From the NCBI GenBank assembly GCA_038213805.1, contig JBBQSO010000061.1, positions 1 through 33,085 on the forward strand: a DNA stretch of 33,085 nucleotides, in the 5' to 3' direction. The DNA comes from Planctomycetota bacterium (GTDB lineage Bacteria > Planctomycetota > UBA11346). Position numbers and translations under genes: made by a program. Positions 7,525 through 33,085 of the stretch are shown here, piece after piece; position 1 is the first letter of the stretch; each line of letters begins with the position of its first letter. The notes under the pieces were generated by a model that worked only from the letters and a program-made list of their open reading frames with translations, was not told the DNA's origin and did no database searches.

Positions 7525-7669
7525 GGTCCGGAGGTCCGGAAGTCCGGACGTCCGGAAGTCGACAGCCCTCAGACGCGAAGACGCATAAGCCTTTCAGCAC
7601 CTCGATCCCACCCCGTGAATTCTGTCGTCCGGAGACTTCCGGACTTCCGGACTCCCGGACTTCCGGACC
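7525..7669. repeat. inverted pair of octamer tandem repeats, (NGTCCGGA)x4.5 .. (GACTYCCG)x4.5
   Basis: Left arm 7525-7560, right arm 7627-7669; complementarity extends into unique GACAG (7561-7565) / CTGTC (7622-7626). Confidence 0.9.
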
Positions 7670-7678
7670 CTGCCCCCC

Positions 7679-8986
7679 ATGATCATCGAACAGCTCGTCC
7701 CCGCCAAATCCCCGACCATGACCGAAGGCACGATCGTCGCATGGCGCGTCAAGCCCGGCGACAAGGTCAAGAGCGGTGACGTGATCGCCGAGATCGCCAC
7801 CGACAAGGCCACGGTCGAGTGGGAGGCGCTCGATGGCGGCACGGTTGCGGAGATCCTGATCCCGGCCGGTGCGCTTGCCCAGGTCAACCAGGTGGCGGCG
7901 ATCTTCACCACCAAGCCCGACGACGACGTCAAGGCGGCGGTGGCCAAAGCCAAGGAGACCAACGCCAAGTTCACGGGCGGCGCCGCGCCCGCCGCCGCGG
8001 CCGCCGCCGCGGCCACGCCGACTCCGGCCGCTGTTCCCGCGGTGACGCCTGCGGCCACGGCGCCATCAGCCATCAGCCATCAGCCATCAGCCCTGCCCAG
8101 GGGCATCCGCGTCTCCCCCGTCGCCGCCAAGATCGCCGCCGCCCAGTCCGTCGACCTGCGCGCGATCAAGGGTTCCGGTCCGGACGGCCGCATCGTGCGC
8201 CGCGACGTCGAGGCCGCCGCGAAGTCCGGATCGGCCAAGCTGGGTGCCGCAGGCGGCGCGCCGGCGAAGGCCGAGAAGCCGAAACTCAAGGTCCTGCGTC
8301 CTGATGGCGCGGTCAGCGACGTGGCGATGTCGCCGATGCGCACCATCATCGGCAAGCGTCTGCTCGAGGCCAAGACCCAGATCCCGCACTTCTATGTCAC
8401 CGAAACCGTCGACGCGGGCGCGCTGAGCACGCTGCGTGAACAGGCCAACCTGCTCGATGGCCTCAAGGTCACGGTCAACGACCTGATCGTGCGCGCCACG
8501 GCGCTCGCGCTGCGTGTGCACCCCAAGCTCAACGCCACCTACCAGGGCACTTCGATCCGCCAGCACGACAGCGCCGACATCTGCGTCGCGGTGGCCATCC
8601 CCGATGGCCTGATCACGCCGATCGTCGCCAAGGCGCACACCAAGAGCGTGCGTCAGATCGGCGACGAGGTGCGCGCGCTCGCCAAGAAGGCGGTCGACGG
8701 CAAGCTCCAACCCGCCGAGTTCCAGGGCGGCAGCTTCACCATCTCGAACCTGGGCATGTTCGGTATCAGCGAGTTCGTCGCGATCATCAACCCGCCCCAG
8801 GTCGCCATCCTTGCCGTCGCGGGCATCAAGGACGAGCCGGTGGTGCGCGGTGGGCAGGTGGTCCCCGGCAAGGTCATGCGCCTGACCATCAGCGCCGACC
8901 ACCGCGCGGTCGACGGCGCCGACGCCGCGGCCTTCCTCAAGACCCTGCGCGAACTGCTGGAAGCCCCGGCGACGCTGCTGATCTAA
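7679..8986 (+). CDS. pdhC: pyruvate dehydrogenase E2 dihydrolipoamide acetyltransferase (single lipoyl domain)
   Basis: SPTMTEG..ATDKAT lipoyl-Lys motif, Ala/Pro linker, SPVA..GSGPDGRI E3-binding domain, catalytic DHRAVDG. Confidence 0.97.
   Translation: MIIEQLVPAKSPTMTEGTIVAWRVKPGDKVKSGDVIAEIATDKATVEWEALDGGTVAEILIPAGALAQVNQVAAIFTTKPDDDVKAAVAKAKETNAKFTGGAAPAAAAAAAATPTPAAVPAVTPAATAPSAISHQPSALPRGIRVSPVAAKIAAAQSVDLRAIKGSGPDGRIVRRDVEAAAKSGSAKLGAAGGAPAKAEKPKLKVLRPDGAVSDVAMSPMRTIIGKRLLEAKTQIPHFYVTETVDAGALSTLREQANLLDGLKVTVNDLIVRATALALRVHPKLNATYQGTSIRQHDSADICVAVAIPDGLITPIVAKAHTKSVRQIGDEVRALAKKAVDGKLQPAEFQGGSFTISNLGMFGISEFVAIINPPQVAILAVAGIKDEPVVRGGQVVPGKVMRLTISADHRAVDGADAAAFLKTLRELLEAPATLLI
8062..8092 (+). 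repeat. (GCCATCA)x4.4 heptamer tract inside pdhC linker
   Basis: Perfect tandem repeat, same unit as the arrays at 25182 and 32954; translates in frame as PSAISHQPSA. Confidence 0.92.
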
Positions 8987-8990
8987 GGCC

Positions 8991-9083
8991 AACGTCCGGC
9001 CTCCGCTGTCCGACGGTGAAGTCCGACAGCGGACCACCGGCGTGATGTCGGGATGGCAAGACATCGGACTTCGGACTTCGGAC
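8991..9083. repeat. degenerate heptamer variant (GAAGTCC / GGACTTC) with internal hairpin
   Basis: TCC recurs every 7 bp at 8991-9011; 13-bp stem with 1 mismatch at 9002-9033; GGACTTC x2.6 at 9066-9083. Confidence 0.6.
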
Positions 9084-9105
9084 ATTCACGAAAAGAAAGA
9101 CTCCC

Positions 9106-10497
9106 ATGGCTGACTACGATGTCCTCGTCATCGGCGCCGGTCCCGGCGGATACGTCGCTGCGATCAAGGCGGCCCAGTACGGCAAGAAGACCGCGATTAT
9201 CGAAAAGGAGAGCCTCGGCGGCGTGTGCCTCAACTGGGGCTGCATCCCGACCAAGGCGCTGCTTAAGAGCGCGGAGATCTTCGACGGTCTGAAACATGCC
9301 AAGGATTACGGTCTGGCCGCCGACAATGTGCGCGCTGACTTCGCCGCGGTGATCAAGCGCTCGCGCGACGTCGCCGGCGCCATGGCGAAGGGCATCGAGT
9401 TCCTGATGAAGAAGAACAAGATCACCGTGCTGAGCGGCACGGCGACCTTCGTCGACGCCAAGACCGTCGCGGTGAAGAAGGCCGACGGCAGCACGCAGAA
9501 CGTCAGCGCCGACAACGTCATCATCGCGACTGGGCACAAGCCGCGCACCTTCCCGCACCTGCCGGTCGACGGCAAGCTGGTGGTCAACTACCGCCACCTG
9601 CTCGCGGCCACCGAGCAGCCGAAGTCGCTGCTGTGCATCGGCGCGGGCGCCATCGGCATGGAGTTCGGCTACTTCTTCTCGACTCTTGGAACCAAGGTCA
9701 CCGTCGTCGAGGTCCTCGACCAGGTGCTGCCGGTCGAGGATGCCGAAGTCGCCAAGGTCGTCGAGCGCGCCTTCACCAAGGCCGGCGTGGCGATCAAGCT
9801 CGGCACCAAGGTGGTCAAGCTTGAGGTCAAGGCGGCCGGCGTCGCCGTGCACCTCGAGAAGGACGGCAAGGCCGAGGTCATCGAGGTCGACAAGGTCCTG
9901 GTCGCGGTCGGCTTCCTGGCCAGCACCGAGGGCGTCGGCCTGGACAAGGCCGGGGTCACCCTCGACGAGCGCGGCTTCATCGCCGTCGATGCCAACATGC
10001 TGACCAACGTGCCGGGTGTCTACGCCATCGGCGACGTCGCCGGCAAGCAGCTGCTCGCGCACAAGGCGAGTTTCGAGGGCGAGGCCGCGGTCGGCCATAT
10101 CGTCGGCCACCCCGCGCCGCTCAACTACGCGCAGATCCCCGGCTGCACCTACTGCCAGCCGCAGGTCGCCTCGGTCGGGCTGACCGAGAAGAAGGCCCTG
10201 GCCGAGGGCCGGAAGCTGAAGATCGGCCGCTTCCAGTTCGCGGCCTCGGGCAAGGCCAAGGCCATCGGCCACCCCGAGGGCTTCGTGAAGCTGGTCTTCG
10301 ACGCTGAGTTCGACCAGCTGATCGGTGCGCACCTGGTCGGCTACGACGCCACCGAGCTGCTCGCCGAGCTCAGCCTGGCGATGAAGCTGGAGTGCACGGC
10401 CAAGGAGATCATGGAGACCATCCACGCCCACCCGACCCTGTCGGAAGCGGTGATGGAATCGGCGGCTGACGCGCTCGGCGTGTGCGTACACCAGTGA
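9106..10497 (+). CDS. lpdA: dihydrolipoamide dehydrogenase (E3)
   Basis: GAGPGGY FAD motif, GGVCLNWGCIPTK redox disulfide, GAGAIG, HAHPTLSE. Confidence 0.98.
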   Translation: MADYDVLVIGAGPGGYVAAIKAAQYGKKTAIIEKESLGGVCLNWGCIPTKALLKSAEIFDGLKHAKDYGLAADNVRADFAAVIKRSRDVAGAMAKGIEFLMKKNKITVLSGTATFVDAKTVAVKKADGSTQNVSADNVIIATGHKPRTFPHLPVDGKLVVNYRHLLAATEQPKSLLCIGAGAIGMEFGYFFSTLGTKVTVVEVLDQVLPVEDAEVAKVVERAFTKAGVAIKLGTKVVKLEVKAAGVAVHLEKDGKAEVIEVDKVLVAVGFLASTEGVGLDKAGVTLDERGFIAVDANMLTNVPGVYAIGDVAGKQLLAHKASFEGEAAVGHIVGHPAPLNYAQIPGCTYCQPQVASVGLTEKKALAEGRKLKIGRFQFAASGKAKAIGHPEGFVKLVFDAEFDQLIGAHLVGYDATELLAELSLAMKLECTAKEIMETIHAHPTLSEAVMESAADALGVCVHQ

Positions 10498-10499
10498 GG

Positions 10500-10671
10500 G
10501 GAAGTCCGGAAGTCCGGAAGTCCGGAAGTCCGGAAGTCGGGACTTTCCGGTGCTCGGCGCGGTTGCGATTCGTTGCGACGGTCTCGCATAGCCCCGGAAT
10601 CGGCGGGCTGAGGTATCCCCGGGTGTCTGGGCTTCCGACTTCCGGACTTCCGGACTTCCGGACTTCCGGAC
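10500..10671. repeat. inverted pair of octamer tandem repeats, (GGAAGTCC)x5 .. (GGACTTCC)x4.5
   Basis: Left arm 10500-10543, right arm 10633-10671, ~89 bp unique spacer. Confidence 0.92.
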
Positions 10672-10690
10672 GGCAGGCCGCAGGCCCGCC

Positions 10691-11386
10691 ATGACATTCA
10701 TCGAGTCCCACCCCACCATCATCACCCCGAATCCGGGCGGCCCGGCCGATCCGCTTGGTGAGTCGGTGCTCGACCCGCAGCAGCCGTGGCTGCGCGTGTT
10801 CGCCCCGGCCGAGGTGCGCGTGGTCGTCGGCCGCCACCAGGATCCGACGCGCGAAGTCCATGTCGATCACGCCCGTGCAGATGGGGTGCCCATCCACCGG
10901 CGCGTCGCGGGCGGCGGGGCGGTGGTGCTGGCGCCGGGCATGGTGGTGGTCGCTGCGCGGCTGCGCCACGAGGTCTTCGGCGTCACGCCCTACATCGACC
11001 TGGTCAGCGGGGCGCTGGTCGCCGGCGTCACGGCGGCGTGCGGGACGGCCCCGGTGATGCGCGGGCTGGGCGACTTGGCCATGGTCGGCGCAGACGGCGT
11101 CCTGCGCAAGGTGCTTGGGGCGTCGCTGCGCCAGACCTCGCGCATGGTGGTCTACCTGGGGGTGCTGCTGGTTGCGGACCGGGTGGAGCTGATGAATCGC
11201 TATCTGCGGCCGCCGAGCCGCGAGCCGGACTACCGTGGCGGGCGCGACCACGGCGACTTCTGCACCGGGCTCGACGCGCATGGCGCGAGCGAAGAAGGCC
11301 TCCTTGCCGCGGTGCGCACGGCCTGCCTGCGCGACCTCGCGGGCCATGCCCTGGAGGTGCCGCGGGTGGGTGGGCTGGGCGCTTGA
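10691..11386 (+). CDS. lipoate-protein ligase / octanoyltransferase family protein (catalytic domain only)
   Basis: VVVG..Q, RRVAGGGAV, GDL..RKVLGAS motifs of the BPL/LplA/LipB fold; directly after lpdA. Confidence 0.82.
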   Translation: MTFIESHPTIITPNPGGPADPLGESVLDPQQPWLRVFAPAEVRVVVGRHQDPTREVHVDHARADGVPIHRRVAGGGAVVLAPGMVVVAARLRHEVFGVTPYIDLVSGALVAGVTAACGTAPVMRGLGDLAMVGADGVLRKVLGASLRQTSRMVVYLGVLLVADRVELMNRYLRPPSREPDYRGGRDHGDFCTGLDAHGASEEGLLAAVRTACLRDLAGHALEVPRVGGLGA

Positions 11387-11494
11387 CGTGCCTGCCGCCC
11401 CGGGTGTGCTAGGAATCCGCTCACCACGCGCGGCCGTCCTCCGTCCGGGTCCTTTCAATCCCCGTCGTCCCTCAGCCTCGCGCCAGGATCTGCC

Positions 11495-12454
11495 ATGAAC
11501 AATCTCGCCATCATCGGTTCCGGACCCGCCGGCTACACTGCGGCCATCTACGCGGCACGCGCCAACCTCGCGCCGGTGCTGTTCACCGGCCGCCAGGCCG
11601 GGGGTCAGCTCACCACCACCACCGAGGTCGAGAACTATCCAGGCTTTCCCGAGGGCATCATGGGCCCCGAGTTGATGGTGCGCTTCGAGCAGCAAGCCAC
11701 GCGCTTCGGCACCGTGGTCAAGGCCGGCTGCGAAGTCACCGAGGTCAAGCGCGGCGAGCACGGCTTCACGATTTCGTGGAGCGACCTCTACCAGGGTACC
11801 AACGAGAGCGCGGAATACGCCACCGTGATCATCGCCACCGGCGCCAGCGCCCGCTACCTGGGCCTGCCCGGCGAAGAGGAGTTCCTGGTCGACGGTCCCG
11901 ACCGCAAGCACGGCCTGACCGCCTGCGCGACCTGCGACGGCGCCTTTTACAAGAACGTCGAGGTCGCGGTGATCGGCGGCGGTGACACCGCCTGCGAGGA
12001 AGCCAACTTCCTCACCAAGTTCGCCTCCAAGGTCTATCTCGTCCACCGCCGCGGCGAGTTGCGCGCGTCGAAGATCATGGCCGAGCGCGCGCTCAAGAAC
12101 CCCAAGATCCAGCCGATCTGGAACAAGACTCTGGGCGGCTACCAGGTCGACGCCAAGCGTAAGATGAGCGGCGTGACCCTGCTCGACACCGTCGACGGTT
12201 CGACCAGCCCGCTGGCGGTGAAGGCGGTGTTCATGGCCATCGGCCACACGCCCAACACCGGCTTCCTCAAGGATTCCGGCCTGAAATTCGACGCCAACGG
12301 CTACATCGAGGTCGAAGAAGGTTGCCGCACCAACGTGGCCGGCCTGTTCGCCGCCGGCGACGTGCGCGATCACCGCTACCGCCAGGCGATCACCGCGGCA
12401 GGCATGGGGTGCATGGAGGCGCTCGAGGCTGAGCACTATCTGCAGGGTCATTGA
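11495..12454 (+). CDS. trxB: thioredoxin reductase
   Basis: GSGPAGYTAA, GGQLTTTTEVENYPGF, CATCDG, GGGDTA.EEA, YRQAITAAG. Confidence 0.97.
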   Translation: MNNLAIIGSGPAGYTAAIYAARANLAPVLFTGRQAGGQLTTTTEVENYPGFPEGIMGPELMVRFEQQATRFGTVVKAGCEVTEVKRGEHGFTISWSDLYQGTNESAEYATVIIATGASARYLGLPGEEEFLVDGPDRKHGLTACATCDGAFYKNVEVAVIGGGDTACEEANFLTKFASKVYLVHRRGELRASKIMAERALKNPKIQPIWNKTLGGYQVDAKRKMSGVTLLDTVDGSTSPLAVKAVFMAIGHTPNTGFLKDSGLKFDANGYIEVEEGCRTNVAGLFAAGDVRDHRYRQAITAAGMGCMEALEAEHYLQGH

Positions 12455-12457
12455 AGA

Positions 12458-12596
12458 GGGTCCGGGGTCCGGAAGTCCGGAAGTCCGGAGTTCGGCTCGA
12501 CGAGGTCAGGGGGCCGTGAAGGGGAGGGTCGTAGTGATTTCCTCGCCGCCTTGCCCTCCTGGAGTTCGGAATTCCGGACTTCCGGACTTCCGGACC
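12458..12596. repeat. inverted pair of octamer tandem repeats, (GGAAGTCC)n .. (GGACTTCC)n
   Basis: Left arm 12458-12495, right arm 12561-12596, ~65 bp spacer. Confidence 0.88.
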
Positions 12597-12718
12597 TCAA
12601 GCCTCGTCCACCTAAGCACGTGCGCCCCAGCCTCTACCGCAACCTGCCTACGCTCCTCACCAAGGCTTGTGCTCTGCCCGTGCCGGGACTAGACTTGAGG
12701 TGGAAAGTCCACACGCCC

Positions 12719-14653
12719 ATGGCCCTCGCTGACGACAGCAGACCATCCGACGCGCTACCCCAGCTTCCCCACCTCCCGGGGATGGAGGGGCTGGACCAGC
12801 CAGCGGTCAAGGCCGAGGAGCCCGAGCCCTTCGACGTCAAACCCGAGTTCATCGTCGGCACCGCCCGTACCTCGCGCGTTGAGGCCAAGCCGGTGACCCC
12901 TGCGGGCGAGACCGCCCACGTCGTCAGCGGCCAGGATCCCTACCTCGGCCGCCAGTTCGGCGGCTATGAGCTGGTGCAGAAGGTCGGCCAGGGCGGCATG
13001 GGCCTGGTCTACAAGGGCCGCCAGCTCAGTCTCGACCGGGTGGTCGCGGTGAAGATCCTCAACAAGGCGCTGTGCGACAACGACGAGTTCATCAAGCGCT
13101 TCGCGCGCGAGGCCAAGTCCATCGCCCGCATCAACCATCCGAACATCATGTCGGTGCATGATTTCGGCCAGACCGATGGGGTCTGGTACATGGTCATCGA
13201 ATTCATCGAAGGCTCCAGCCTGTCGCGCCAGATCGCCGACCGCCTGATGCTGCCGGTCGAGGACCTGGCGCCCATGATGATGCAGTGCCTGGCCGGCCTC
13301 GCCCACGTCGGCGCGCAGGGCATCGTGCACCGCGACATCAAGCCCGACAACATCCTCATCACCAGTGAAGGCATCGCCAAGATCGCCGATTTCGGCCTCG
13401 CCAAGGACGTCTCGGCGAACAACGACGCGACCGACCTGACCGCGGTCGGACTGGCCATGGGTACGCCCGCCTACATGAGCCCGGAACAGTGCATGGGGCG
13501 CAAGCTCGATGGGCGTTCCGACCTCTATTCGCTCGGCGTCACCGCCTACCTCGCCCTGACCGGCGAGAAACCCTTCACCGGGCAGTCGTCGTTTGAGATC
13601 ATGACCAAGCAGCGCGAGCAGCTGCCGGTGCCGCCGTCCAAGCTCAATCCGCACATCCCGCGCGAGGTCTCGGACCTGGTCATGCGCATGCTCGCGAAGA
13701 GCCCGAGCGACCGCTTCAGCGACGCCGAGGCCTGTCGCGCCGCGTGGGCCGAGCTCGGCGCGCGCCTCGGCTTCCTTGGCAGCCCGCCGGCCGCGACCGA
13801 GGTCCCGTCCGCGCCGATCGTGAAGGGTGCGCGCAGCGGAGTGCCCGCACCGCTGCCACCCGCAAACGCACCGCTCGCGCCGCTCCCGTCGATGTCGCCA
13901 CCGCTCGCCGCGCCTCCTGCCGAGCCGGCCAAGTCCACCTCGCCGCGGCGCAGCACCGACGTCCATCCCGCGCCCGACGACGCCCACAAGGGCCCCAGCA
14001 GCGAACGCCGCGAACGCTCCACCACCGAGCGCCGACTGTCCGCGCGCGGCCCGGCGGTGGTGAGCGAGGCTTCGACCTGCGCGCGCTGCGGCATGCTCAA
14101 CCGCGGCGACGCGGCGGTGTGCTCGCGCTGCGGCCACGAGTTGCGCCCGCCGGCCGACGATCCCCAGGCCGCACGCGGCCAGGAGGCCGAGGCCCAGCGC
14201 CTGTTCGCCGCCGGCCAGTTCAAGGAGGCCGCGGGGATCTACGCGCGCCTCGCCGACCGCGAGACCGACCGCCGGGCGCGCACCGTGCTGCGCAGCCGCG
14301 AGCGCGAGGCGCGCACCGGCGAGCACGAGCATGCCGTGCTCGAGCTGCAGAACCGCACCCAGGTGATGGTCAAGCGCGGCGAACTGAAGGCCGGCATCGA
14401 GATCCTCGAGAAGGGCCTGCGCGAGGTGCGCGAGGCCGGCAGTTCGTCGACCGGTGCCGAGACGCGCCTGCTTGAGGACATCACCAACCTGCGCGCGCGG
14501 CTGCGTGGGCGGCGGCGCACCCGTGTGATCCTGATTGTGGTGGTGGTGGTCGCGGTGCTGGTTGGGCTGCTCCTGCTCAGCCTCGCCCTGCCGAAGGACG
14601 CGGCGCCGGGCCACGCGCTGCACGGACCGCCGGCGAGCGCGGACCAGGCATGA
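12719..14653 (+). CDS. Hanks-type Ser/Thr protein kinase with Pro-rich linker, zinc ribbon, TPR-like helices and C-terminal TM anchor
   Basis: GQGGMG, VAVK, HRDIKPDN, DFG, GTPAYMSPEQ; CARC..CSRC; hydrophobic VILIVVVVVAVLVGLLLLSL near the C-terminus. Start set at ATG 12719. Confidence 0.92.
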   Translation: MALADDSRPSDALPQLPHLPGMEGLDQPAVKAEEPEPFDVKPEFIVGTARTSRVEAKPVTPAGETAHVVSGQDPYLGRQFGGYELVQKVGQGGMGLVYKGRQLSLDRVVAVKILNKALCDNDEFIKRFAREAKSIARINHPNIMSVHDFGQTDGVWYMVIEFIEGSSLSRQIADRLMLPVEDLAPMMMQCLAGLAHVGAQGIVHRDIKPDNILITSEGIAKIADFGLAKDVSANNDATDLTAVGLAMGTPAYMSPEQCMGRKLDGRSDLYSLGVTAYLALTGEKPFTGQSSFEIMTKQREQLPVPPSKLNPHIPREVSDLVMRMLAKSPSDRFSDAEACRAAWAELGARLGFLGSPPAATEVPSAPIVKGARSGVPAPLPPANAPLAPLPSMSPPLAAPPAEPAKSTSPRRSTDVHPAPDDAHKGPSSERRERSTTERRLSARGPAVVSEASTCARCGMLNRGDAAVCSRCGHELRPPADDPQAARGQEAEAQRLFAAGQFKEAAGIYARLADRETDRRARTVLRSREREARTGEHEHAVLELQNRTQVMVKRGELKAGIEILEKGLREVREAGSSSTGAETRLLEDITNLRARLRGRRRTRVILIVVVVVAVLVGLLLLSLALPKDAAPGHALHGPPASADQA

Positions 14654-19636: not shown

Positions 19637-19778
19637 GGCTGGCAGCTGACGGCTCGTGGTCGCACCTCATCGTACGGTCATCAGGGTGGGTCCCTGTCCC
19701 GGGCGCGCAGTTCACATCCGGATTTGGGCTCCACCTGCACGCATCGCGCTACGAGGCATCCGCCGTCAGCCGTCCGCC
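19637..19778. repeat. degenerate inverted heptamer pair (GGCTGRC .. GCCGTCA) in the CYTH/accA divergent gap
   Basis: 19637-19653 GGCTGGCAGCTGACGGC is identical to 25080-25096; GCCGTCAGC (19762-19770) is the reverse complement of 19645-19653. Confidence 0.7.
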
Positions 19779-22594: not shown

Positions 22595-22778
22595 GGCGGA
22601 TTCCTTTCCCTGTGGGTGGGTGTGTGGCAGGGTCCGTTATAACCCATGTCAGGTCGCGGCAAGGTTGGCAGATCCCGGCGTCCTGTGTCAGCGCTGAAGC
22701 GTTGCCGACCGCGCCACTGCGCTTTCATATTGCGTCGAGGGCTCGCCGCCGACCATCCCGGACCCACGGATCCACGCC

Positions 22779-23450: not shown

Positions 23451-23532
23451 TGCCTGGTGCCGACAACAACGGATGACTGACGTCTTGCAGCAGGCGACGC
23501 TGGCGGATGTGCAGCGATCCGGCTGGTCCCCG

Positions 23533-23609
23533 ACGCGCAGCGTGTTGGTTTCTGACTGTCGCCGTCCGCCGCCGGCCATCTGCTGTCAACCATCTGCTGT
23601 CAACCATCG
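23533..23609. repeat. GCA-triloop mini-hairpin followed by a degenerate heptamer tract
   Basis: ACGC-GCA-GCGT at 23533-23543; GCCGTCC GCCGCCG GCCATCT GCTGTCA ACCATCT GCTGTCA ACCATCG at 23561-23609. Confidence 0.7.
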
Positions 23610-23613
23610 AACC

Positions 23614-23970: not shown

Positions 23971-24394
23971 GCGGGCCCCGCGCGGTGGGATCGGTCACGG
24001 CGCCGGCGGCGCGGCGCTCGTCCTTAGTGATGATGCGCGCCCGGAGGCTGCGGCAACCGCGGTTCCGCGCGGCCTGCGGCAGCGCCTTGCCCGTGTCTGT
24101 GCAGCGACCTTGCATCGCTGCCTTGCGACGCTCCAATCTCGGGGCCAGTGCCGTTCGCGGCCACCAAGCCACCCGAGTCGAGGGCGTTGACCATGTGGGA
24201 TCTGAGCGATCACCAGCGCTCCGTGATCAGGGGGCCACGGGCCGCTTCGCCGCTGCTCGCTTCAACCATGGTCAGTCACCTGCTGATCGGTTGGACACAG
24301 CGCAAGGCCTCCGTCGAGCGCGCGCAGCAGCCGTTCGCAGCGCACCCTGCGCCTGCGCCCGCCACGGCATGAGTCGCGTCCCCGCCGCGCTTCT

Positions 24395-25057: not shown

Positions 25058-25065
25058 ATGGGGCC

Positions 25066-25243
25066 GGCTGACGGCTGACGGCTGGCAGCTGACGGCGTGT
25101 GAAACGTGCCCAAGGCCGCTGGTCGAACCGGAGCTCTATCCAACGCACGAAAATGACGAACCGGCGCGCAGCGCCGGTTCGTCAGCCATCAGCCATCAGC
25201 CATCAGCCATCAGCCATCAGCCATCAGCCATCAGCCATCAGCC
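25066..25243. repeat. inverted heptamer pair (RGCTGRC)x4.4 .. hairpin .. (TCAGCCA)x8.9
   Basis: Left arm 25066-25096; perfect 14-bp hairpin TGACGAACCGGCGC-GCA-GCGCCGGTTCGTCA at 25154-25184; perfect array 25182-25243. Confidence 0.93.
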
Positions 25244-25248
25244 GTTCT

Positions 25249-26154: not shown

Positions 26155-26247
26155 GGCGATTCCTTCGCGGGACGGGTGGTGCCGGTACTACGCCGCGCCC
26201 CGCCATGGCGTTGCCTGGCGGCGGCGGCGCAGGCCGGCCGGAGGGGG

Positions 26248-27492: not shown

Positions 27493-27680
27493 GGTAAATG
27501 TCCTGGGGGTACCGAGGCTGGGGTGCCGTTCCACCCACACGCTCTTAGTCCGTGCGCGCGCTTCGGCAACGCCCGGCCGCGGTCGCGCGTATGTGACTGG
27601 GCAATCGCACGCGCAGTGAGTGCTGGCATCCGGTGCCGTCCCGCGACCCTACATCACCGCGCGCCCCCCAGGAGCCCTTC

Positions 27681-28394
27681 ATGAAGATCCTCGCCCTCCT
27701 CGCCCTCCTTGCTCTCGGGCAGCCGTTCCTGGGTGCCGCTGACGCCGGTGCCGCCCCCGCTGTGGCTGGTGCGCAGGCCGAGGCAGCGCACCAGCCTGCG
27801 GGTCCCGAGCGCTGGGAGAAGGAGATCAAAGCCTTCGAGGCGGCGGACGCCAAGAGCCTTCCCGCGCCCGGTGGCAACGTCTTCGTCGGCAGCTCAAGCA
27901 TCGTGAAGTGGCAGACCCTGCTCCAGGACTTCGCGCCGGCGCCGGTCATCAAGCGCGGCTTCGGCGGCTCGCAGATCTCCGACTCGCTGTTCTACGCCGA
28001 GCGCATCATCCTGCCCTACAAGCCCAAGCGCGTGTTCGTCTACGCCGGCGACAATGACCTGGCCGCGAAGCGCACGCCCGCCCAGGTGGCCGGGGACTTC
28101 GCGGGCATCACCGCCAAGGTCCACGCGGCGCTGCCGGCGGCCCGCATCTACTTCATCGCCATCAAGCCGAGCCCGGCGCGCGTCAAGCTGATGCCCGAGA
28201 TCACCCAGACCAACGCCCTGGTGAAGGCCTTCACCGCCACGCACCCGGAAGCGGGCCTGATCGACATCTGCACGCCCATGCTCAGCGCCGAGGGGCAGCC
28301 GCGCCCCGAACTCTTCGGTGACGACAAATTGCACATGAACGAGATGGGCTACGCGATCTGGGTCGGGATCATCAAGCCGCTGCTTGCCGACTGA
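27681..28394 (+). CDS. secreted SGNH/GDSL-family hydrolase
   Basis: Signal peptide; FVGSSS, RGFGGS, YAGDND, D.LH blocks; GGAG RBS. Confidence 0.9.
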   Translation: MKILALLALLALGQPFLGAADAGAAPAVAGAQAEAAHQPAGPERWEKEIKAFEAADAKSLPAPGGNVFVGSSSIVKWQTLLQDFAPAPVIKRGFGGSQISDSLFYAERIILPYKPKRVFVYAGDNDLAAKRTPAQVAGDFAGITAKVHAALPAARIYFIAIKPSPARVKLMPEITQTNALVKAFTATHPEAGLIDICTPMLSAEGQPRPELFGDDKLHMNEMGYAIWVGIIKPLLAD

Positions 28395-28452
28395 GTCCGG
28401 CGCGGGCGGCAGCGCATTTCCTCGTACCCGGCGACATCCTTCGGAACGCACC

Positions 28453-29322
28453 ATGAATCCACGCATCCTGCTCGCCATCGCCCTCCTGGCATCGTCCCTC
28501 TCCGGCATGCTCCAGGCCGCGGATCCGGTGCGCGACGACCACGCGGCGGAGCAGCTCGGCTGGCACCTTGCGACCAAGTGTTACACGTTCAATAAGCTCA
28601 CCCTGGTCGAGACCCTGGTCATCACCAGACGCCTGGGTCTGCGCTACATCGAGATCAACCCCGGTCAGCGCTTCAGCGCCGAGCAGCCGGTGAACACCGA
28701 CCACAAGTCGACCTCCGAAGTGCGCGCGGCGATCACGCAGAAGCTCGCCGAGTACGGCGTCACCGCGCTCGGTTACGGCGTGGTCCAGCTCGGCAAAGAC
28801 GCGGTCGCCGACCGCGCGGTCTTCCAGTACGCGAAGGACCTGGGCATTGGCGTGCTGGTCTCGGAGCCAGGCGCGGACGCGTTCGCGACGCTCGACACGC
28901 TGACCGCCGAATTCGGCATCAAGGTCGCGATCCACGATCACCCCAAGCCGTCGCCCTACTGGAATCCGGAGGCCGTGCTGGCCGCCATCATGGGCCACAG
29001 CGCGGCGATCGGCGCGTGCGCCGACACCGGCCACTGGGCGCGTTCCGGGCTCGACCCCGTCGCCTGCCTGAAGCAGCTCGATGGCCACATAATCAGCGCG
29101 CACTTCAAGGACACCGACAAGATCGGCCAGGGCGCGCGCGACGTGCCGCTCGGCACCGGCAAGGCCGGACTCGCGGCGATGCTCGGTGAACTCAAGCGGC
29201 AGGGCTTCAAAGGCCTGCTGTCTCTGGAGTACGAATCGGGCGCGAGCGGAGAGGCGCTCATCGCCGAGTTGCAGCAGTGCATCGCCAACTTCGACAAGGC
29301 GGCAGGCGATCTCGCGAAGTGA
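28453..29322 (+). CDS. secreted sugar phosphate isomerase/epimerase (xylose-isomerase-like TIM barrel) family protein
   Basis: Signal peptide; AIHDH, DTGHW.RSG.DP, HFKD, DVPLGTG, SLEYE. Confidence 0.88.
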   Translation: MNPRILLAIALLASSLSGMLQAADPVRDDHAAEQLGWHLATKCYTFNKLTLVETLVITRRLGLRYIEINPGQRFSAEQPVNTDHKSTSEVRAAITQKLAEYGVTALGYGVVQLGKDAVADRAVFQYAKDLGIGVLVSEPGADAFATLDTLTAEFGIKVAIHDHPKPSPYWNPEAVLAAIMGHSAAIGACADTGHWARSGLDPVACLKQLDGHIISAHFKDTDKIGQGARDVPLGTGKAGLAAMLGELKRQGFKGLLSLEYESGASGEALIAELQQCIANFDKAAGDLAK

Positions 29323-29323
29323 C

Positions 29324-30544
29324 TCAGGCCTCGGCCGCCTGCGTGGCTGGTGCGGCGGTGCCATCGGGCGCGTGCTCGAGCCGGCGCACCAGGATCAGCG
29401 CGAGCAGCGCAGCCGCGCACGACATCCAGCCGAGCGTACCGTAGTGCTGCAGGGGCGCCTGCGCACCGGTCGGCCCGATGACCAGGCCGGCGACCACCAC
29501 TGCGGCGCCGCTCGCGGCCGCTTGGATGGCGCTGTTCAGGCTCATGAAGGTGCCGCGCAGCTGCGGCGGGACGGTCGCGCTGATCAACGCCATCGCCGGC
29601 ACGAAGCGGCCGCTGCCGCAGACGATGAAAGCCGTGGTGACCGCCAGGATCGCCGGCAGCGTCAGCGGCGGCAGGTGGGTCAGCGCCAGGGTCGGCCCCA
29701 TGGCGATCACCGCCACGATGGTGAAGACGCGGTGCTTGCCATAGCGGTCGGCGAGGCGGCCGATGAGCGGCGAGGTGATGAGGGCCAGCGCGCCGCCGCA
29801 CAGGTAGACGAAACCGAGCTCGGTGTCGCTCACCCCCAGGTTGCGCGCCAGGTAGATGGCGATGAAGGGGATGACCAGGAAGCCGGCGCAGACCACCGAC
29901 GCGGTGAAGGCGAAGGCTAGCCAGGCGCGTGGGGCGCGCAGCACCGCCACCACCGCGGCCTGCGCTGGACGGCGTTCCGCCACGAGGTGGCCGGTGAGGC
30001 GGGTCATGGTCAGCGCGACGGCGGCCAGGGTCGCCGTCGCGACGGCGGCGATGGTGAAGAAGGTGGCGTGCCAGCCCATCCAGCCCGCGATCCACACCCC
30101 AAACGGTACGCCCACCACCGATGCCAGCGCGAATGCCGACATCACCACGCCCATGGCCGCACCGCGGCGAGCGTAGGGCACCACGTCTGCGATGATCGCC
30201 ATGATCAGGGCGCCGAGCAGTCCGCCGAAGGCGCCCGCCGCGCATCGTGCCAGCACCAGTACCGGGAAGTCCGGCGCCAGGGCGCAGGCGATGGTCGCGA
30301 TGATGAAGCCGACGTAGACCGCTATCAGGGCACGCTTGCGCTCGAAGCGGTCGATGAGAAAGGCGCCCAGCACCGCCGCCACCGCCGAGCTGAAGGTGTA
30401 GGCCGATACCGCCACCGCGAACTGGCTCGGCGCGATCGCGAAGGCCTTGGTCAGCTGCGGACCGAGCGGCATCATGACCACGAAATCGCACATCTGCGTG
30501 AAGTTGATGGCGGTGAGCAGGGCGATCAGCAGACGTTCGTTCAT
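29324..30544 (-). CDS. MFS transporter (DHA1-like)
   Basis: About 12 TM helices; DRFERK and GRLADRYGK motif-A repeats; DF.VMMPLGP; start MNERLL at 30544. Confidence 0.92.
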   Translation of the reverse strand: MNERLLIALLTAINFTQMCDFVVMMPLGPQLTKAFAIAPSQFAVAVSAYTFSSAVAAVLGAFLIDRFERKRALIAVYVGFIIATIACALAPDFPVLVLARCAAGAFGGLLGALIMAIIADVVPYARRGAAMGVVMSAFALASVVGVPFGVWIAGWMGWHATFFTIAAVATATLAAVALTMTRLTGHLVAERRPAQAAVVAVLRAPRAWLAFAFTASVVCAGFLVIPFIAIYLARNLGVSDTELGFVYLCGGALALITSPLIGRLADRYGKHRVFTIVAVIAMGPTLALTHLPPLTLPAILAVTTAFIVCGSGRFVPAMALISATVPPQLRGTFMSLNSAIQAAASGAAVVVAGLVIGPTGAQAPLQHYGTLGWMSCAAALLALILVRRLEHAPDGTAAPATQAAEA

Positions 30545-30842
30545 GAGGCCCTTCGCGAGACGGCCCGTTGCCAGTCCGGCCGCCGACGGGAAGTTGGATG
30601 TTGGCGTAAGGACCGGACTGGCCAGTGCGGAGGTCGCCAGGCGTGAACGGGGATGACGGAAGGCAGGAGGGGGGACGACAGGATGCAGGGATGGCACGAG
30701 CGGGATCATGCGCGAGACCTGGCGAATGGGCGGCGTGCCGCGAGACCCGCATCTTGCGAGGTGTTCGATCACCCACGGTCTCGGAGGCGACCCAAGCGCA
30801 CCGCCCCGTCGTCCCTCGCAGCGACTGCCGCGAAGCTGCCTC

Positions 30843-30886
30843 TTGACACGACCCAATTAGTAAACTAATGATAACATATACAGGAG
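30843..30886 (+). promoter_or_regulatory. AT-rich promoter with palindromic operator ATTAGT-AA-ACTAAT and RBS
   Basis: TTGACA 30843-30848; perfect inverted repeat 30856-30869; TG-A-TAACAT 30869-30877; AGGAG 30882-30886. Confidence 0.7.
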
Positions 30887-30892
30887 CTCGAG

Positions 30893-31582
30893 ATGACCAC
30901 CATCGCCCCAGCCACGCCCGTTCTGCCCCACGGCGACGGCGCCCGCCCCGTCAAACGCCTCCCGCTGTGGCTCAAGCTGGCCTACACCGCTTTCCTGGCG
31001 GTGCTGGTTCCGGTCTACTGGTACAACTACGGTCCGACCAATTTCCTTTACTTCTGCGACGTTGCCTTGCTCGTGACCCTGGTCGGTATGTGGCGTGAGT
31101 CGGCGCTGCTCATCTCCATGGCGGCGGTCGGCATCCTGCTGCCACAGCTGGTGTGGGTAGTGGACTTCCTCGCCGGACTGGTCGGCATCACCGTGACCGG
31201 CATGACCACGTACATGTTCAACGCCGAGCGCCCGCTGTTTCTGCGCGGTTTGTCGCTCTTCCATGGTTGGCTGCCGCTGCTGCTGATCGGCCTGGTGTGG
31301 CGTCTTGGGTACGACCGCCGCGCCTTCTGGAGCTGGACCATCCTGGCATGGATCCTGATGGTGGTCTGCCTGACCGCGATGCCCGGCCCGCGTGCGGATG
31401 CGGCCAAGATCGACACGCCGGTCAACATCAACTACATGCACGGCCTGAGCGACACCCAGGCGCAGGCCTGGATGCCGGGCTGGGCGTGGACGGCGCTGAT
31501 GCTGGCAGGCATGCCGCTGCTGATCTTCCTGCCCACGCACCTGGTGCTGCGCCGCGTCTGCCGCCCGGCGGCACAGATCTGA
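30893..31582 (+). CDS. integral membrane protein of unknown function
   Basis: About 6-7 TM helices; NFLYFCD, LSLFH, NINY motifs; strong RBS. Confidence 0.85.
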   Translation: MTTIAPATPVLPHGDGARPVKRLPLWLKLAYTAFLAVLVPVYWYNYGPTNFLYFCDVALLVTLVGMWRESALLISMAAVGILLPQLVWVVDFLAGLVGITVTGMTTYMFNAERPLFLRGLSLFHGWLPLLLIGLVWRLGYDRRAFWSWTILAWILMVVCLTAMPGPRADAAKIDTPVNINYMHGLSDTQAQAWMPGWAWTALMLAGMPLLIFLPTHLVLRRVCRPAAQI

Positions 31583-31811
31583 ACTCCGCGCCCCGGGCAG
31601 AAAGCCCTCAGCGGGCGCGCCGGTGTCTTGTATTCCCCTGCACAGGGCCGAGGGTCATCCACGGCGCCCAGCGCGCAGCCGGCGGCAGTCGATCCACCGG
31701 TCGGTGGGACCGGCAGCGAGCAGAGGACGGGTTGCGCGTCCGCCCGCGCCGTCTTCGCGCTGCCGCAGCGTCTTTTTCGCGTGGCTTCCGCTCGGCCCAG
31801 AAGGATTCCGC

Positions 31812-32828
31812 ATGAGCATGCTCGAGGACCGCGACTTCTACCCGTTCATCCAGCCCGGCGACTGGCGGCACCTGGATTCGTGCTATACGCGTCGCCTGCT
31901 GCCCGACAGCGACGAGCTGTACATCGCCTACGGCCAGCCCGGCGATGAGAGCAACGACTTCCTGAACAAGGAGGCCCTCGCGCAGAGCGGGCTGGAGGCC
32001 GACGCGGTGCACGAGCGCGCCGTCACCAACCTCACCAAGCGCCATGGCACGCGCACCTGGACCGAACTCGACATCGGTGGCGTGACCGTGCTCCAGCGCA
32101 CCGGCGATCCATACGTCTCGGCGGACGTGCTCAACAGCAAGGGTCTCGGCAAGCTCCACCATTTTCTACGCAGCGGCGCGGTGTACGTCGCGATCCCAAC
32201 CTGCTTCTCGTTCCTGGCGTGCGCGCACGCCTCGCTGCTGAACGGCATCGTCGCCGGCGTGTATGCGGAAGCCGTCGTCAACCGCACCGGACCGATCACC
32301 CCGCGCCTGCTCGCGGTCGCCAACGGCACCATCACCGGCTTCCACGAGCCTACCCTGCCCGAGCCGGTGACCAGCGACCGCGACGAGGCCGCACGCCACC
32401 TCGGCCACGGCCTGGCTGCAGTCTTCCAGATCGTCACCACGGCGCGTGGCGACGAATTGGTCGGTCCCGACGCCTTCTGGGAGCAGGTGCGCAAGCGCAT
32501 TAAGGTCGAGGACGCGGATTTCTCCGCCACGCTCACCCAGGCGAAAGAGGCCTATAGCGCGCGGCTCGCACCGCCCGCCGAGGGCGAGCCACCCGCCGGC
32601 GGCAAGCCGCTGGTCCTGGCGGACCTGATGGTGGGCGCTGCGCGCGCGCTGCTTGACGAAGCCGGCTACGACGCCTTCGCCGACGGTGTGCTGCGCGCGG
32701 CTATCGCCATCGGCCAGGCCGGCACCGGCTTCTTCGGCCTGGGCCGCAAGATGCCGGACGGTGTGCTCACCGTGGCGCGCGGGCTGGGTGGGGTGCTGGG
32801 TCAGGATACGGCGGGACTGAAGGCGTGA
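31812..32828 (+). CDS. hypothetical two-domain protein (DUF1444-like N-terminus, TerB-like helical C-terminus)
   Basis: LYIAY..P.....FL....L...GL....VHERAV.NL resembles DUF1444/YtpQ; IGQAGTGFFGLGRK resembles the TerB-like A.GGF.G.G motif; AAGGA RBS before ATG 31812. Confidence 0.65.
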   Translation: MSMLEDRDFYPFIQPGDWRHLDSCYTRRLLPDSDELYIAYGQPGDESNDFLNKEALAQSGLEADAVHERAVTNLTKRHGTRTWTELDIGGVTVLQRTGDPYVSADVLNSKGLGKLHHFLRSGAVYVAIPTCFSFLACAHASLLNGIVAGVYAEAVVNRTGPITPRLLAVANGTITGFHEPTLPEPVTSDRDEAARHLGHGLAAVFQIVTTARGDELVGPDAFWEQVRKRIKVEDADFSATLTQAKEAYSARLAPPAEGEPPAGGKPLVLADLMVGAARALLDEAGYDAFADGVLRAAIAIGQAGTGFFGLGRKMPDGVLTVARGLGGVLGQDTAGLKA

Positions 32829-32843
32829 TGAGGCTGGGAGCTT

Positions 32844-33085
32844 CTGATAGTTGATAGCTGATAGCTGATGGCTCCTTGTCCTATGCACTGGCCGGTGCGC
32901 AGCGCATGGCCAACCTTCCGGCATAGCCGAGGCCGGTGCGTTCCGCGCCGGCCTCAGCCATCAGCCATCAGCCATCAGCCATCAGCCATCAGCCATCAGC
33001 CATCAGCCATCAGCCATCAGCCATCAGCCATCAGCCATCAGCCATCAGCCATCAGCCATCAGCCATCAGCCATCAGCCATCAGCC
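32844..33085. repeat. inverted heptamer pair (YTGATRG)x4 .. hairpins .. (TCAGCCA)x>=18.9 running off the window end
   Basis: Left arm 32844-32873; hairpins at 32889-32912 and 32929-32955; perfect array 32954-33085. Confidence 0.95.

Follow-up and report, generated by a model that had tools for sequence, protein, structure and literature searches.

Why, in the intergenic regions of one planctomycetal contig, is a short tandem array followed again and again by its own reverse complement, and why always in the same order? The window, that is the whole stretch of 33,085 nucleotides analysed here, is one entire contig of a draft Planctomycetota genome (5.5 Mb, 90% complete). A first-pass annotation had described a family of such elements with fixed polarity, and had suggested that either a templated, telomerase- or RT-like activity or selection for long mRNA stems produced them.

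Paired arrays in the window

We checked the sites in the window by direct reading and with Tandem Repeats Finder. The features found are listed below; no strand is assigned to any of them.

e1 left arm, 7526..7560: (GTCCGGAA)x4.4, 14 nt past the stop of the E1-beta gene
e1 spacer, 7561..7633: unique, loosely alignable to intergenic DNA of the sister genomes G003 and G009
e1 right arm, 7634..7668: reverse complement x4.4, 10 nt upstream of the E2 gene ATG
e2, eroded, 8991..9083: left side reduced to scattered GTCCG remnants, right side (GACTTCG)x3.4 at 9060-9083
e3 left arm, 10500..10542: (GGAAGTCC)x5.4, 2 nt past the lpd stop
e3 spacer, 10543..10631: unique
e3 right arm, 10632..10671: x5.1, next ATG 19 nt downstream
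e4 left arm, 12458..12489: GGGTCCG, then GTCCGGAA x2.9, 3 nt past a stop codon
e4 spacer, 12490..12566: holds an older purine-rich/pyrimidine-rich stem, homologous to an inverted repeat of G003 at the same site
e4 right arm, 12567..12595: (CGGACTTC)x3.6
e5, degenerate, 19637..19778: GGCTGGCAGCTGACGGCT (19637-19654) and CCGCCGTCAGCCGTCCGCC (19760-19778)
e7 left arm, 25065..25096: (CGGCTGA)x4.6, 7 nt past a stop codon, genes convergent
e7 spacer, 25097..25181: unique, with a GC-rich hairpin at its end (gaaccggcgcgcagcgccggttc)
e7 right arm, 25182..25243: (TCAGCCA)x8.9, stop codon of the minus-strand gene 5 nt further on
e8 left arm, 32844..32873: variant unit (CTGATAG)x4.3
e8 spacer, 32874..32953: unique, with a GC-rich hairpin at its end
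e8 right arm, 32954..33085: (TCAGCCA)x18.9, runs off the contig end

The array, spacer and inverted array that the annotation had placed at 7525, 10500, 12458, 25066 and 32844 are clear at all five sites. Its pair at 19637-19778 is present, with only about two degenerate units per side; G003 carries a similarly degenerate GGCTG../..CAGCC pair there. One of two sites described as eroded or partial, 8991-9083, is indeed an eroded element, and at the orthologous site G007 and G005 have tight hairpins built of GTCCGGA or GTCCGAT units. The other, 23533-23609, is not a member of the family: we rejected 23576-23608 as an element, since the 14-mer repeated directly there (x2.4) has no visible inverted partner. 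Every copy in the window lies between protein-coding genes and none inside a 23S rRNA helix. Rfam gave no match in the window and, as the annotation had stated, no candidate enzyme is encoded there.

The arrays are not an assembly artefact. Logan contigs from two runs reproduce the arm and spacer at 7300-7659 and reach across 11608-12800; the left arm at 10500-10538 is also present in two strain-level relatives. The entire intergenic stretch with e3, window positions 10498-10690, is replaced by 10 nt in G003, the closest relative.

One polarity throughout the genome

To count polarity genome-wide, as the annotation had proposed, we defined a strict pair as a tandem array, a unique spacer and a reverse-complement array, with same-family neighbours at most 400 nt apart. 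All 190 strict inverted pairs of the genome have one polarity, none has the opposite one, and 4 pairs are direct. The elements do form a family in the sense of the annotation: five main unit families hold 78, 52, 18, 24 and 14 pairs, with no reversed pair in any of them, and their five words are reused at about 300 genomic sites. Of the 264 arrays left unpaired, 107 are accompanied by a decayed partner where the polarity predicts it, and 1 by a partner on the wrong side. A family-agnostic census of neighbouring arrays in the genome gave 234 inverted against 7 direct pairs. Thus, the paired arrays are real and far beyond chance. That the purine- or G-rich arm comes first holds inside the window, but is not general, because the C-rich arm comes first in 24 of 24 pairs of the ACCCTAG family.

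We agree with the annotation that slippage alone explains neither pairing nor polarity. Local microsatellites, shaped at each site by slippage and by selection for a long stem in RNA or DNA (acting as terminator, mRNA stabiliser or RNase III site) and never moving between loci, should yield both polarities if they originated independently, whereas we found 190 against 0. The recurrence of five words at so many sites also speaks against them.

Arm architecture

Arm length peaks sharply at about 4.4 units, or 4 units plus 3 nt, and the phase is fixed at both ends, which again does not fit local microsatellites. In the GTCCGGAA family, 101 of 156 paired arms measure 4.0-4.5 units (35 nt); the left arm reads (GTCCGGAA)n+GTC and the right arm begins GACTTCCGG. 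Modal lengths in the remaining main families are 4.5, 4.5, 3.5 and 2.5 units. The ACGCGGAG family has conserved non-repeat termini (ggataaaaca ... tgttytatcc) around unique centres, which indicates that arms are inherited as units and is a further point against microsatellites. Two other features favour such microsatellites: the lengths of left and right arms are uncorrelated (r -0.22 to 0.13), and some arms have grown to at least 20 units. The two arms of a pair are 92-97% complementary. Variants within them are mostly unmirrored, 64 occurring in a single arm and 7 identically in both (2.2 expected). Nested cases were also found in this genome.

Several of these properties bear on the proposal of templated synthesis at a break, in which an enzyme akin to a telomerase or RT would extend each 3' end with the same unit. 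The order X..rc(X) and a constant start phase are what such a mechanism would produce, and in the arm listing it is usually the two innermost units that come closest to perfection. However, the outer phase is fixed as well, the preferred arm length (4 units plus 3 nt) is not accounted for, and one family ends in non-repeat termini. The mechanism would join the two arms directly, the most recently made DNA lying at the centre, and would leave no room for 50-140 nt of local spacer, whereas the spacers are ordinary intergenic DNA, partly homologous to that of a sister genome. The 90%-complete genome also contains no RVT_1 (PF00078) match. We therefore regard templated addition, as put forward by the annotation, as highly improbable.

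Spacers, folding and genomic placement

The spacers of the 190 pairs have a median of 84 nt (extremes 5-250 nt, 50-140 nt typical). They are unrelated to each other, as the annotation had noted from the window: an all-against-all blast returned only 43 short matches, mostly at array edges. Only 11 of the 190 match anything else in the genome, so that 179 centres are unique and the elements are not one MITE copied intact. We recognised no target duplication when searching by eye, and no defined empty-site footprint was found among the relatives. Elements are gained and lost fast between relatives.

Classical non-autonomous transposons, either MITEs moved by an insertion-sequence transposase or REP/REPIN elements moved by RAYT, would account for the fixed polarity, since terminal inverted repeats always show it. 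The arms have family and sub-family structure, the ACGCGGAG family and related families of G007 end in ..GAACA / TGTTC.. like true terminal inverted repeats, and 4 Y1 transposase genes score above the cut-off. But copies of MITEs and REPINs share their cores, a single arm, unlike a REP, is not palindromic by itself, and the two strong Y1_Tnp genes, at C48 and C97, have REP-like palindromes on their flanks instead of these arms. Together with the missing target duplication, this makes transposition of the classical kind improbable.

Whole elements fold strongly (mean dG -89 kcal/mol, z -10), in line with selection for a stem, while the spacers fold like ordinary intergenic DNA (z -0.61 versus -0.66). 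Spacers that resemble such DNA, and that in G000, G003 and G009 are in part orthologous, are what local microsatellites would leave, as are the GTCCG-type words at the three pdh-operon sites in G000, G007, G005 and G009/G008. Arrays begin mostly 1-30 nt past stop codons, and 118 of the 190 elements overlap no gene in the crude gene calls made for this analysis. Two other results speak against local microsatellites under such selection: arm mismatches show no G.U bias toward the transcribed strand (49 versus 39), and divergent genes flank the elements at the expected frequency (35 of 180).

The same arms enclose IVP genes

The annotation had suggested a search for four-helix-bundle genes between such arms. 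We found them elsewhere in the genome, though none in the window. Three of five PF05635 genes (four-helix-bundle, 23S-rRNA-IVS protein, S23p/Avd-like; here IVP) are bracketed by arms of the TGGCTGA, GTCCGGAA and GCTTCTC families. In relatives, 8 of 30 IVP loci have exactly complementary arrays and 4 more near-complementary ones. Two Xanthomonas species carry their single IVP gene between GGGAATR x4.3 and GATTCCC x4.4, and across five GGGAATC-bearing genomes 9 of 22 IVP loci are bracketed. In a Gemmatimonadaceae MAG the same heptamer flanks an IVP gene in the opposite polarity, so the word alone does not dictate polarity. The same arms in the same polarity around IVP genes, here and in distant bacteria, point to short elements and gene cassettes being one element type. 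Four large families (ACTCCGC, ACCCTAG, ACGCGGAG and ACGGCTG) have no arm-matched IVP gene in this draft.

We then compared genomes with and without IVP, which are related and not independent and were sampled at 6-440 kb each. Pairs occurred in six of seven IVP-bearing genomes (G000, G003, G007, G008, G009 and G018, at 3-12.5 per 100 kb), and none in 556 kb sampled from the IVP-less G004, G006, G011, G014, G015, G016 and G017. G012 has 19 IVP matches, yet no pair in 106 kb. IVP-less relatives with samples of at least 37 kb have about 2-11 arrays per 100 kb at similar G+C, but no pairs. This is difficult to reconcile with local microsatellites, an origin that we consider unlikely on the evidence as a whole. 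A match (E 1.7e-22) links the IVP of this genome to the pentamer XCC0516 (structure 2GSC), and an RNase III gene is present.

Comparison with known repeat systems

Repeat-armed hairpins are not new as a kind, as 70-75 convergent GGGAATC heptamer pairs per genome are already reported, in the available text of Rehm et al. 2015 (PLoS One, PMC4692102), for Xanthomonas campestris and X. axonopodis. As described there, these pairs resemble ours in being tandem 7-base words of mostly about four units, intergenic and near the end of the adjoining ORF, with one array per strand, always convergent, of a length that differs among relatives and with no tie to insertion sequences. Unlike Xanthomonas, this genome has at least five unrelated words, of which two are octamers and the main ones lack GGG, as well as nested cases and one family with the C-rich arm first. 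The same text, as far as available, draws no link between the repeats and S23p genes, whereas in the present analysis the gene is bracketed in two Xanthomonas species. G-quadruplexes or i-motifs have been proposed for the Xanthomonas and Nostoc heptamers, and G-quadruplex formation in vitro is shown for GGGAATC oligonucleotides in PMC4692102. A G-quadruplex takes at least four runs of three or more G, and this could apply to GGG-bearing families only; the main words GGAAGTCC, TGGCTGA, GCGGAGT and ACGCGGAG have no three-G run and yet share the architecture, and such structures are a scarcely credible explanation of it. Cyanobacterial STRR heptamers and prokaryotic long simple-sequence repeats are, like our arrays, over-represented intergenic tandem heptamers; as cited in the available part of PMC4692102, they are single arrays, with pairing, polarity and a link to cassettes absent from their description.

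The intervening sequences (IVSs) of 23S rRNA in Coxiella burnetii, Leptospira and Salmonella come close to our elements. According to the available text of Warrier et al. 2016 (PMC4990558), they share terminal inverted repeats with a stem of about 28 bp, a variable interior, an optional PF05635 (S23p) gene, 5' tandem heptamers of strain-variable copy number, a sporadic distribution and a location inside a host transcript. In Coxiella, RNase III cuts the 28-bp terminal stem in the middle, and 2-3 tandem heptamers stand at the 5' end (PMC4990558). Unlike these IVSs, the elements described here lie between protein-coding genes and are mostly ORF-less, and their cleavage by RNase III is putative.

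MITEs have terminal inverted repeats, as here, but also shared internal sequence and target-site duplications. REP and REPIN elements, reportedly mobilised by RAYT transposases (the names attached are Nunvar, 2010, and Bertels and Rainey, 2011), likewise form hundreds of short intergenic hairpins and inverted doublets, with genome-specific sequence at sites common to relatives. A REP consists of one imperfect palindrome whose head is conserved, and in REPINs the spacer, too, is conserved from copy to copy; in contrast, our arms are tandem words around unique centres, and the RAYT-like genes found here have different repeats on either side.

A proposed class of hairpins with repeat-built arms

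We think it somewhat more probable than otherwise that the short elements are gene-less members of an IVS-like class of repeat-armed hairpins, in which arms of about 4.4 tandem copies of a 7- or 8-base word, specific to each family, enclose 50-140 nt of unique DNA and the whole occupies the space between two genes. On our best reading, one type of element takes three forms: these short elements, the IVP gene cassettes and the 23S rRNA IVSs. The fixed polarity would follow if arms were copied from arms of the same family, like transposon ends, instead of arising locus by locus, and slippage may alter copy number afterwards. By analogy with rRNA IVSs, the transcribed stem of 30-40 bp would probably be cut by RNase III, which might allow the insert to reside inside an operon. 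The pentameric IVP protein may be needed in trans for the spread or upkeep of arms, and the number of spaced word cores in an arm, five, would suit one IVP ring.

Several observations count against this reading, among them the mostly unmirrored arm variants, the pair-free sample of G012, the four families with no arm-matched IVP gene and the opposite polarity in the Gemmatimonadaceae MAG. No spacer was found copied elsewhere, that is, transposition of whole elements in the manner of MITEs is not seen. Furthermore, newer arms lie outside older hairpin DNA at e7 in G003 and at e4 of the window, where the homology of the spacer stem to the G003 inverted repeat places the GTCCGGAA arms outside it; a simple one-unit insertion is thus insufficient.

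A bolder version, which we put forward only tentatively and rather doubt, is that IVP itself both writes and keeps the arms. Its homopentameric ring would bind five word cores (4 units plus 3 nt), each IVP subfamily having its own word. With host replication or repair, an arm could then be copied from an existing element to both intergenic edges, or the second arm could be made by fold-back copying of the first. If so, IVP and its arms would be a new kind of mobile element needing no transposase or RT, and the roughly 300 gene-less hairpins of this genome would be its non-autonomous offspring. Such an element would account at once for the heptamer excess in bacteria, for the intervening sequences in rRNA and for what a large orphan protein family does.

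Significance

To our knowledge, the excess of heptamer tandem repeats in bacteria, the origin of the IVSs that fragment 23S rRNA and the function of PF05635 have been unexplained for decades. On the reading that we prefer, that of one class of repeat-armed elements, this genome shows all three as parts of one thing, in that the same repeat-built arms, in the same order, enclose either local DNA alone or an IVP gene. The hairpins also lead to wrong start-codon calls and broken assemblies, and within operons they probably define the limits of transcripts. If the link holds in independent lineages, it would provide a practical annotation rule and lead directly to the question whether IVP binds or propagates its arms.

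Results

The window is the complete contig C61 of a 5.50-Mb draft genome (G000; 180 contigs, 69% G+C). The first-pass annotation had listed eight sites here at which a short tandem array is followed by its reverse complement. Direct reading and Tandem Repeats Finder (TRF) bore out five of them as clear elements, each composed of a tandem array of a 7-8-base word (left arm), a unique spacer and the reverse-complement array (right arm), while the other three were weaker. The elements, in forward-strand positions, are:

7526-7668, e1, clear element with the word GTCCGGAA
10500-10671, e3, clear element with the word GTCCGGAA
12458-12595, e4, clear element with the word GTCCGGAA
25065-25243, e7, clear element, left arm GGCTGAY, right arm TCAGCCA
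32844-33085, e8, clear element, left arm GGCTGAY, right arm TCAGCCA, running past the contig end
19637-19778, e5, degenerate pair only
8991-9083, e2, eroded

The remaining site, 23576-23608, was rejected as an element. It is a direct 14-mer repeat (CCATCTGCTGTCAA x2.4) within an intergenic stretch of 163 nt (23451-23613) that measures only 6 nt in the sister genome G003.

Elements occupy their intergenic gaps fully. In the pyruvate-dehydrogenase-type operon at 6432-12454 (E1-beta, E2, lpd and two more genes), left arms start 2-14 nt after a stop codon and right arms end 10-19 nt before the next ATG. An Rfam search of the window gave no family matches. The tracts are not artefacts of assembly: Logan contigs from two public DNA sequencing runs carry the left arm, the spacer and a portion of the right arm over 7300-7659 and also span 11608-12800. 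One of the two best runs may be the source sample. In two runs with strain-level relatives the contigs stop in the left arm at 10538. Read depth over the arrays was up about tenfold, matching the expectation for a dispersed repeat. A further array of the TCAGCCA family, (GCCATCA)x4.4, lies inside the E2 gene itself (8062-8092), in a flexible linker translated as PSAISHQPSA. Compared with the sequence beside it, its read depth was several hundredfold higher in two runs (X1 and X2) and about 40-fold higher in two others (X3 and X4), like that of a dispersed repeat.

Arm order across the genome

TRF analysis of the complete G000 genome yielded 7,606 rows. The commonest 7-8-mer words were AAGTCCGG (232 arrays after merging), AGCCATC (206), ACTCCGC (70), ACCCTAG (70) and ACGCGGAG (58). 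Taking neighbouring same-family arrays no more than 400 nt apart as pairs, we counted 190 inverted pairs: 78 of AAGTCCGG, 52 of AGCCATC, 18 of ACTCCGC, 24 of ACCCTAG, 14 of ACGCGGAG and 4 of two smaller families. Each family had one arm order (190 inverted pairs, none reversed, 4 direct), so the fixed polarity proposed for the window holds genome-wide; a family-blind census of neighbour pairs gave 234 inverted versus 7 direct. That the G-rich arm always comes first, as the first-pass annotation had it, is not a rule, as the C-rich arm leads in 24 of 24 ACCCTAG pairs. Since X..rc(X) is identical on both strands, arm order belongs to the element and cannot be caused by the direction of transcription or replication. 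According to crude GC3-based gene calls, elements lay between co-directional (58 + 42), convergent (45) and divergent (35) genes, against a background of 885, 794, 537 and 528 in the same order.

Unpaired arrays kept the same asymmetry. Among 264 of them, a decayed partner (12 or more of 14 bases) was present on the expected side in 107 cases and on the wrong side in one. Ninety-seven internal arrays had no partner at all, and for 77 of these a called gene was available on either side: left-type arrays were closer to the left gene in 26 versus 11 cases, right-type arrays closer to the right gene in 29 versus 11. Families did not cluster along contigs (28 same-family neighbours versus 30.8 expected); the three consecutive GGAAGTCC sites of the window do not reflect a general rule. 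Long TCAGCCA arrays were also seen at contig ends, at 32954-33085 of the window and in 29 of the 102 unpaired AGCCATC arrays. This repeat family is thus one cause of the fragmented assembly, and the true copy numbers of TCAGCCA/AGCCATC probably exceed those counted.

Arms and spacers

Arm-to-arm complementarity was 92-97%, and the lengths of the two arms were uncorrelated (r -0.22 to 0.13). Variant units occurred in one arm only in 64 cases and identically in both in 7 (versus 2.2 expected); mirrored variants are a weak signal only. Uncorrelated lengths and one-armed variants indicate that each arm drifts and slips independently. Nevertheless, arm length has a sharp mode: 101 of the 156 paired GTCCGGAA arms measure 4.0-4.5 units (35 nt, equal to four units and three bases), and the modes in other families are 4.5, 4.5, 3.5 and 2.5 units. 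The phase of the GTCCGGAA arms is fixed at both ends, with (GTCCGGAA)n+GTC on the left and GACTTCCGG...CCGGAC on the right. Elements of the ACGCGGAG family share termini of conserved, non-repeat sequence (ggataaaaca-GGAGRCGCGGAGACGCGGAGA-wcggaggagg ..., mirrored at the other end), and the centres they enclose are wholly different from copy to copy. Together, the length mode, the fixed phase and these conserved ends argue that arms are inherited as defined units and do not grow afresh at each site. Purely local slippage plus selection does not explain the elements, because polarity, the common words and the fixed arm length are left over; the earlier view that slippage alone is insufficient is borne out to that extent.

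Conserved, MITE-like ends (..GATAAAACA / TGTTYTATC.. or ..GATYGAACA / TGTTCRATC..) mark a superfamily that has varied tandem 8-mers immediately inside them and unique centres. Its members include C12:66257-66392, C16:5219-5400, C27:47487-47639 and others in G000, and loci L212, L216, L220, L225 and L228 in the relative G007. Mismatches between arms did not significantly favour G.U on the transcribed strand (49 versus 39). Where a start codon follows the arm by 4-35 nt (n=41), raw counts gave a Shine-Dalgarno-like word in 10 cases and a leader of at least half C (cctcccccATG) in 19; examples are window 7669-7681, C22:51792 and C31:43391.

Spacers are 5-250 nt long, with a median of 84 nt among the 170 spacers of 40-160 nt. 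As the first reading of the window had suggested, they are mutually unrelated: all-against-all blast of the 190 spacers returned 43 short matches, mostly array edges, and blast against the G000 genome found any match for 11 of 190, two being local tandem duplications. Neither search revealed a common core. Whole elements have evidently been duplicated in local tandem at C16:5122-5400 and C31:15992-16333, where a copy of the spacer lies beside its own element (97% over 76 nt in the first case, 94.5% over 73 nt in the second). One true case of nesting was found on C27, with a ACGCGGAG element inside an AGCCATC element. In folding samples of 70, 70 and 30 sequences, spacers resembled ordinary intergenic DNA (z -0.61 versus -0.66; G+C 0.648 versus 0.685), and whole elements folded with a mean of -89 kcal/mol (z -10). 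The inner junction is not conserved: of 78 GTCCGGAA elements, only 7 have TCGTG after the left arm. Complementarity past the array edges is about random.

Same sites, other words in relatives

Synteny of the operon extends to about 15 relatives, where the same intergenic sites hold the same architecture with different words: GTCCGAT..ATCGGAC in G009, G008 and G005, GTCCGGR..YCCGGAC in G007, and GAGTTTC..GAAACTC in G018, which belongs to another genus. At the E2/lpd junction, G005 and G007 have tight hairpins with loops of 5-10 nt. The closest relative is G003 (about 87% identity in whole-window blastn against G003 loci). There, 10 nt replace the 193-nt stretch at the e3 site, and the e1 site retains a right-arm remnant only. 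The e4 site is a purine-rich/pyrimidine-rich inverted repeat in G003, the right half of which is homologous to the e4 spacer of the window; the GTCCGGAA arms in G000 thus enclose older hairpin DNA. At the e7 site, G003 has new GCAGAGG-type arms around an apparent GGCTGA-arm remnant.

A 440-kb sample of G007 contained 22 pairs of about ten word families. Collinear flanks placed only 5 of the 22 in G000, too few for statistics on inheritance versus re-insertion; three sites are empty (24-63 nt) and two are e2 and e3 of the window. These comparisons point to fast turnover, in which the word follows the genome more than the site and layers can nest. Some operon junctions that hold hairpins elsewhere carry inserts of about 600 nt whose two small ORFs resemble an antitoxin-toxin pair (E2/lpd in G009, L015, and G008, L019; E1-beta/E2 in G014, L018). 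No arrays were seen around them.

Candidate enzymes and IVP genes

The first-pass annotation had proposed a telomerase-like activity that adds the same unit to both 3' ends at a break. This model found no support in the 90%-complete G000 genome, where RVT_1 had no matches. Y1-transposase gave five matches, four above the cut-off, and the two strong Y1 genes are flanked by other, REP-like palindromes. G000 has an RNase III gene; the sole RNase III-like gene found (C15:73861-74208) lies between ACCCTAG-family elements at C15:72393-72519 and C15:74516-74683.

Five genes in G000 encode PF05635 proteins ('23S rRNA intervening sequence protein', S23p, an Avd-like four-helix bundle; hereafter IVP). 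The proposed search for four-helix-bundle genes between arms was productive, since three of the five are bracketed by the same arm families in the same polarity:

C19:6015-6329, PF05635 gene between (TGATGGC)5.9 and (GCCATCA)4.4
C29:26364-26612, PF05635 gene between (GTCCGGAA)4.4 and (GACTTCCG)4.5
C115:11837-12145, PF05635 gene between GCTTCTC and GAGAAGC arrays

From the flanks, we take the neighbours of the C29 gene to be a guaB-like gene and guaA. In tblastn, five IVP proteins gave no significant match to the 190 spacers (best E 0.04). The C19 protein matches crystal structure 2GSC (XCC0516 of Xanthomonas campestris; E 1.7e-22), an entry with five chains, and Warrier et al. cite XCC0516 as a homopentamer (PMC4990558).

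A search of 31 genomes found PF05635 in 16, one of them G000. Exact reverse-complementary 7-8-mer arrays stood on both sides of 8 of 30 PF05635 loci and near-complementary ones at 4 more; the remainder mostly had an array on one side. Co-occurrence was examined in contigs of 13 relatives, which are kin and some of which are represented by samples of 6-30 kb chosen around the operon. The seven without a PF05635 match in their incomplete genomes (G004, G006, G011, G014, G015, G016 and G017) had no inverted pairs in 556 kb, versus about 24 expected at G000 density, and 0-11 arrays per 100 kb in samples of at least 37 kb. Pairs per 100 kb numbered 4.25 in G000, 5.0 in G007, 3.0 in G003, 3.4 in G018, 5.0 in G009 and 12.5 in G008. 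The exception is G012, with 19 PF05635 matches and no pairs in 106 kb.

The heptamer repeats described in Xanthomonas mostly have four units and lie at a mean distance of 28 nt from the 5' neighbouring ORF; the paper proposes no mechanism except possible G-quadruplexes (PMC4692102), which cannot apply to the G000 words. Scanning a sequence collection for four GGGAATC units, we found at least 125 loci, those listed including Xanthomonas, Luteimonas, Dokdonella, Rhodanobacter, Gemmatimonadaceae, Moorena, Acidobacteriota and others. Four tandem units also occur in such distant lineages (L064-L143) as a Thermoplasmata archaeon MAG, an Elusimicrobia MAG, Vibrio jasicida and several Moorena and Gemmatimonadaceae. 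Of 89 of these loci examined, 22 had a partner downstream (G-rich arm leading) and none had one upstream. PF05635 genes were present in 5 of 5 tested GGGAATC-bearing genomes versus 1 of 14 controls, and 9 of the 22 PF05635 loci in those five were bracketed. The single PF05635 gene of Xanthomonas arboricola and of X. euroxanthea sits between (GGGAATR)4.3 and (GATTCCC)4.4, within an operon and in the same direction. Moorena and a Gemmatimonadaceae MAG have further bracketed PF05635 genes with other words. One Gemmatimonadaceae case has AGCCATC first, opposite to the G000 order, so a word does not dictate its own polarity.

In the complete 9.3-Mb genome G026 of the same phylum, PF05635 copies (C1, L271-L281), many with shared in-frame stops, lie within near-identical (98%) units of 700-760 nt. 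The units are sharply bounded on the left (CCAAGTTGCGACC..), have no heptamer arms and run on into a larger shared repeat; they are uninformative as a guide to the mobile unit of the G000 elements.

Discussion

The simplest account is that the window holds a repeat-armed hairpin element in its gene-less form, the IVP cassette being its gene form and the classical 23S rRNA intervening sequence (IVS) its rRNA form. The Coxiella IVS is described as having an S23p ORF, a 28-bp terminal stem cut mid-stem by RNase III and, at the 5' end, two or three tandem GACAGAT heptamers, the first of which coincides with the RNase III site (PMC4990558). In the repeat-armed hairpin account, arms would descend from existing arms, from which fixed polarity follows, and slippage would produce the length tails. 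Stems of 30-40 bp are textbook RNase III substrates, and the predicted cutting of the stem would let inserts reside inside operons. Five spaced word cores per arm and a pentameric protein are a coincidence worth testing, nothing more.

Whole-element transposition was not seen, and the simple account explains neither arms that flank pre-existing DNA (e4; e7 in G003) nor the unique centres. A possible route would be a first arm followed by fold-back copying, in which single arms may be intermediates. In open PMC and bioRxiv full text we found no paper tying heptamer pairs to PF05635. The kind is already in print for Xanthomonas, and the G000 elements are a real and well-marked further case of it. 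What the present finding contributes is clean statistics and the contrast between relatives with and without a PF05635 gene.
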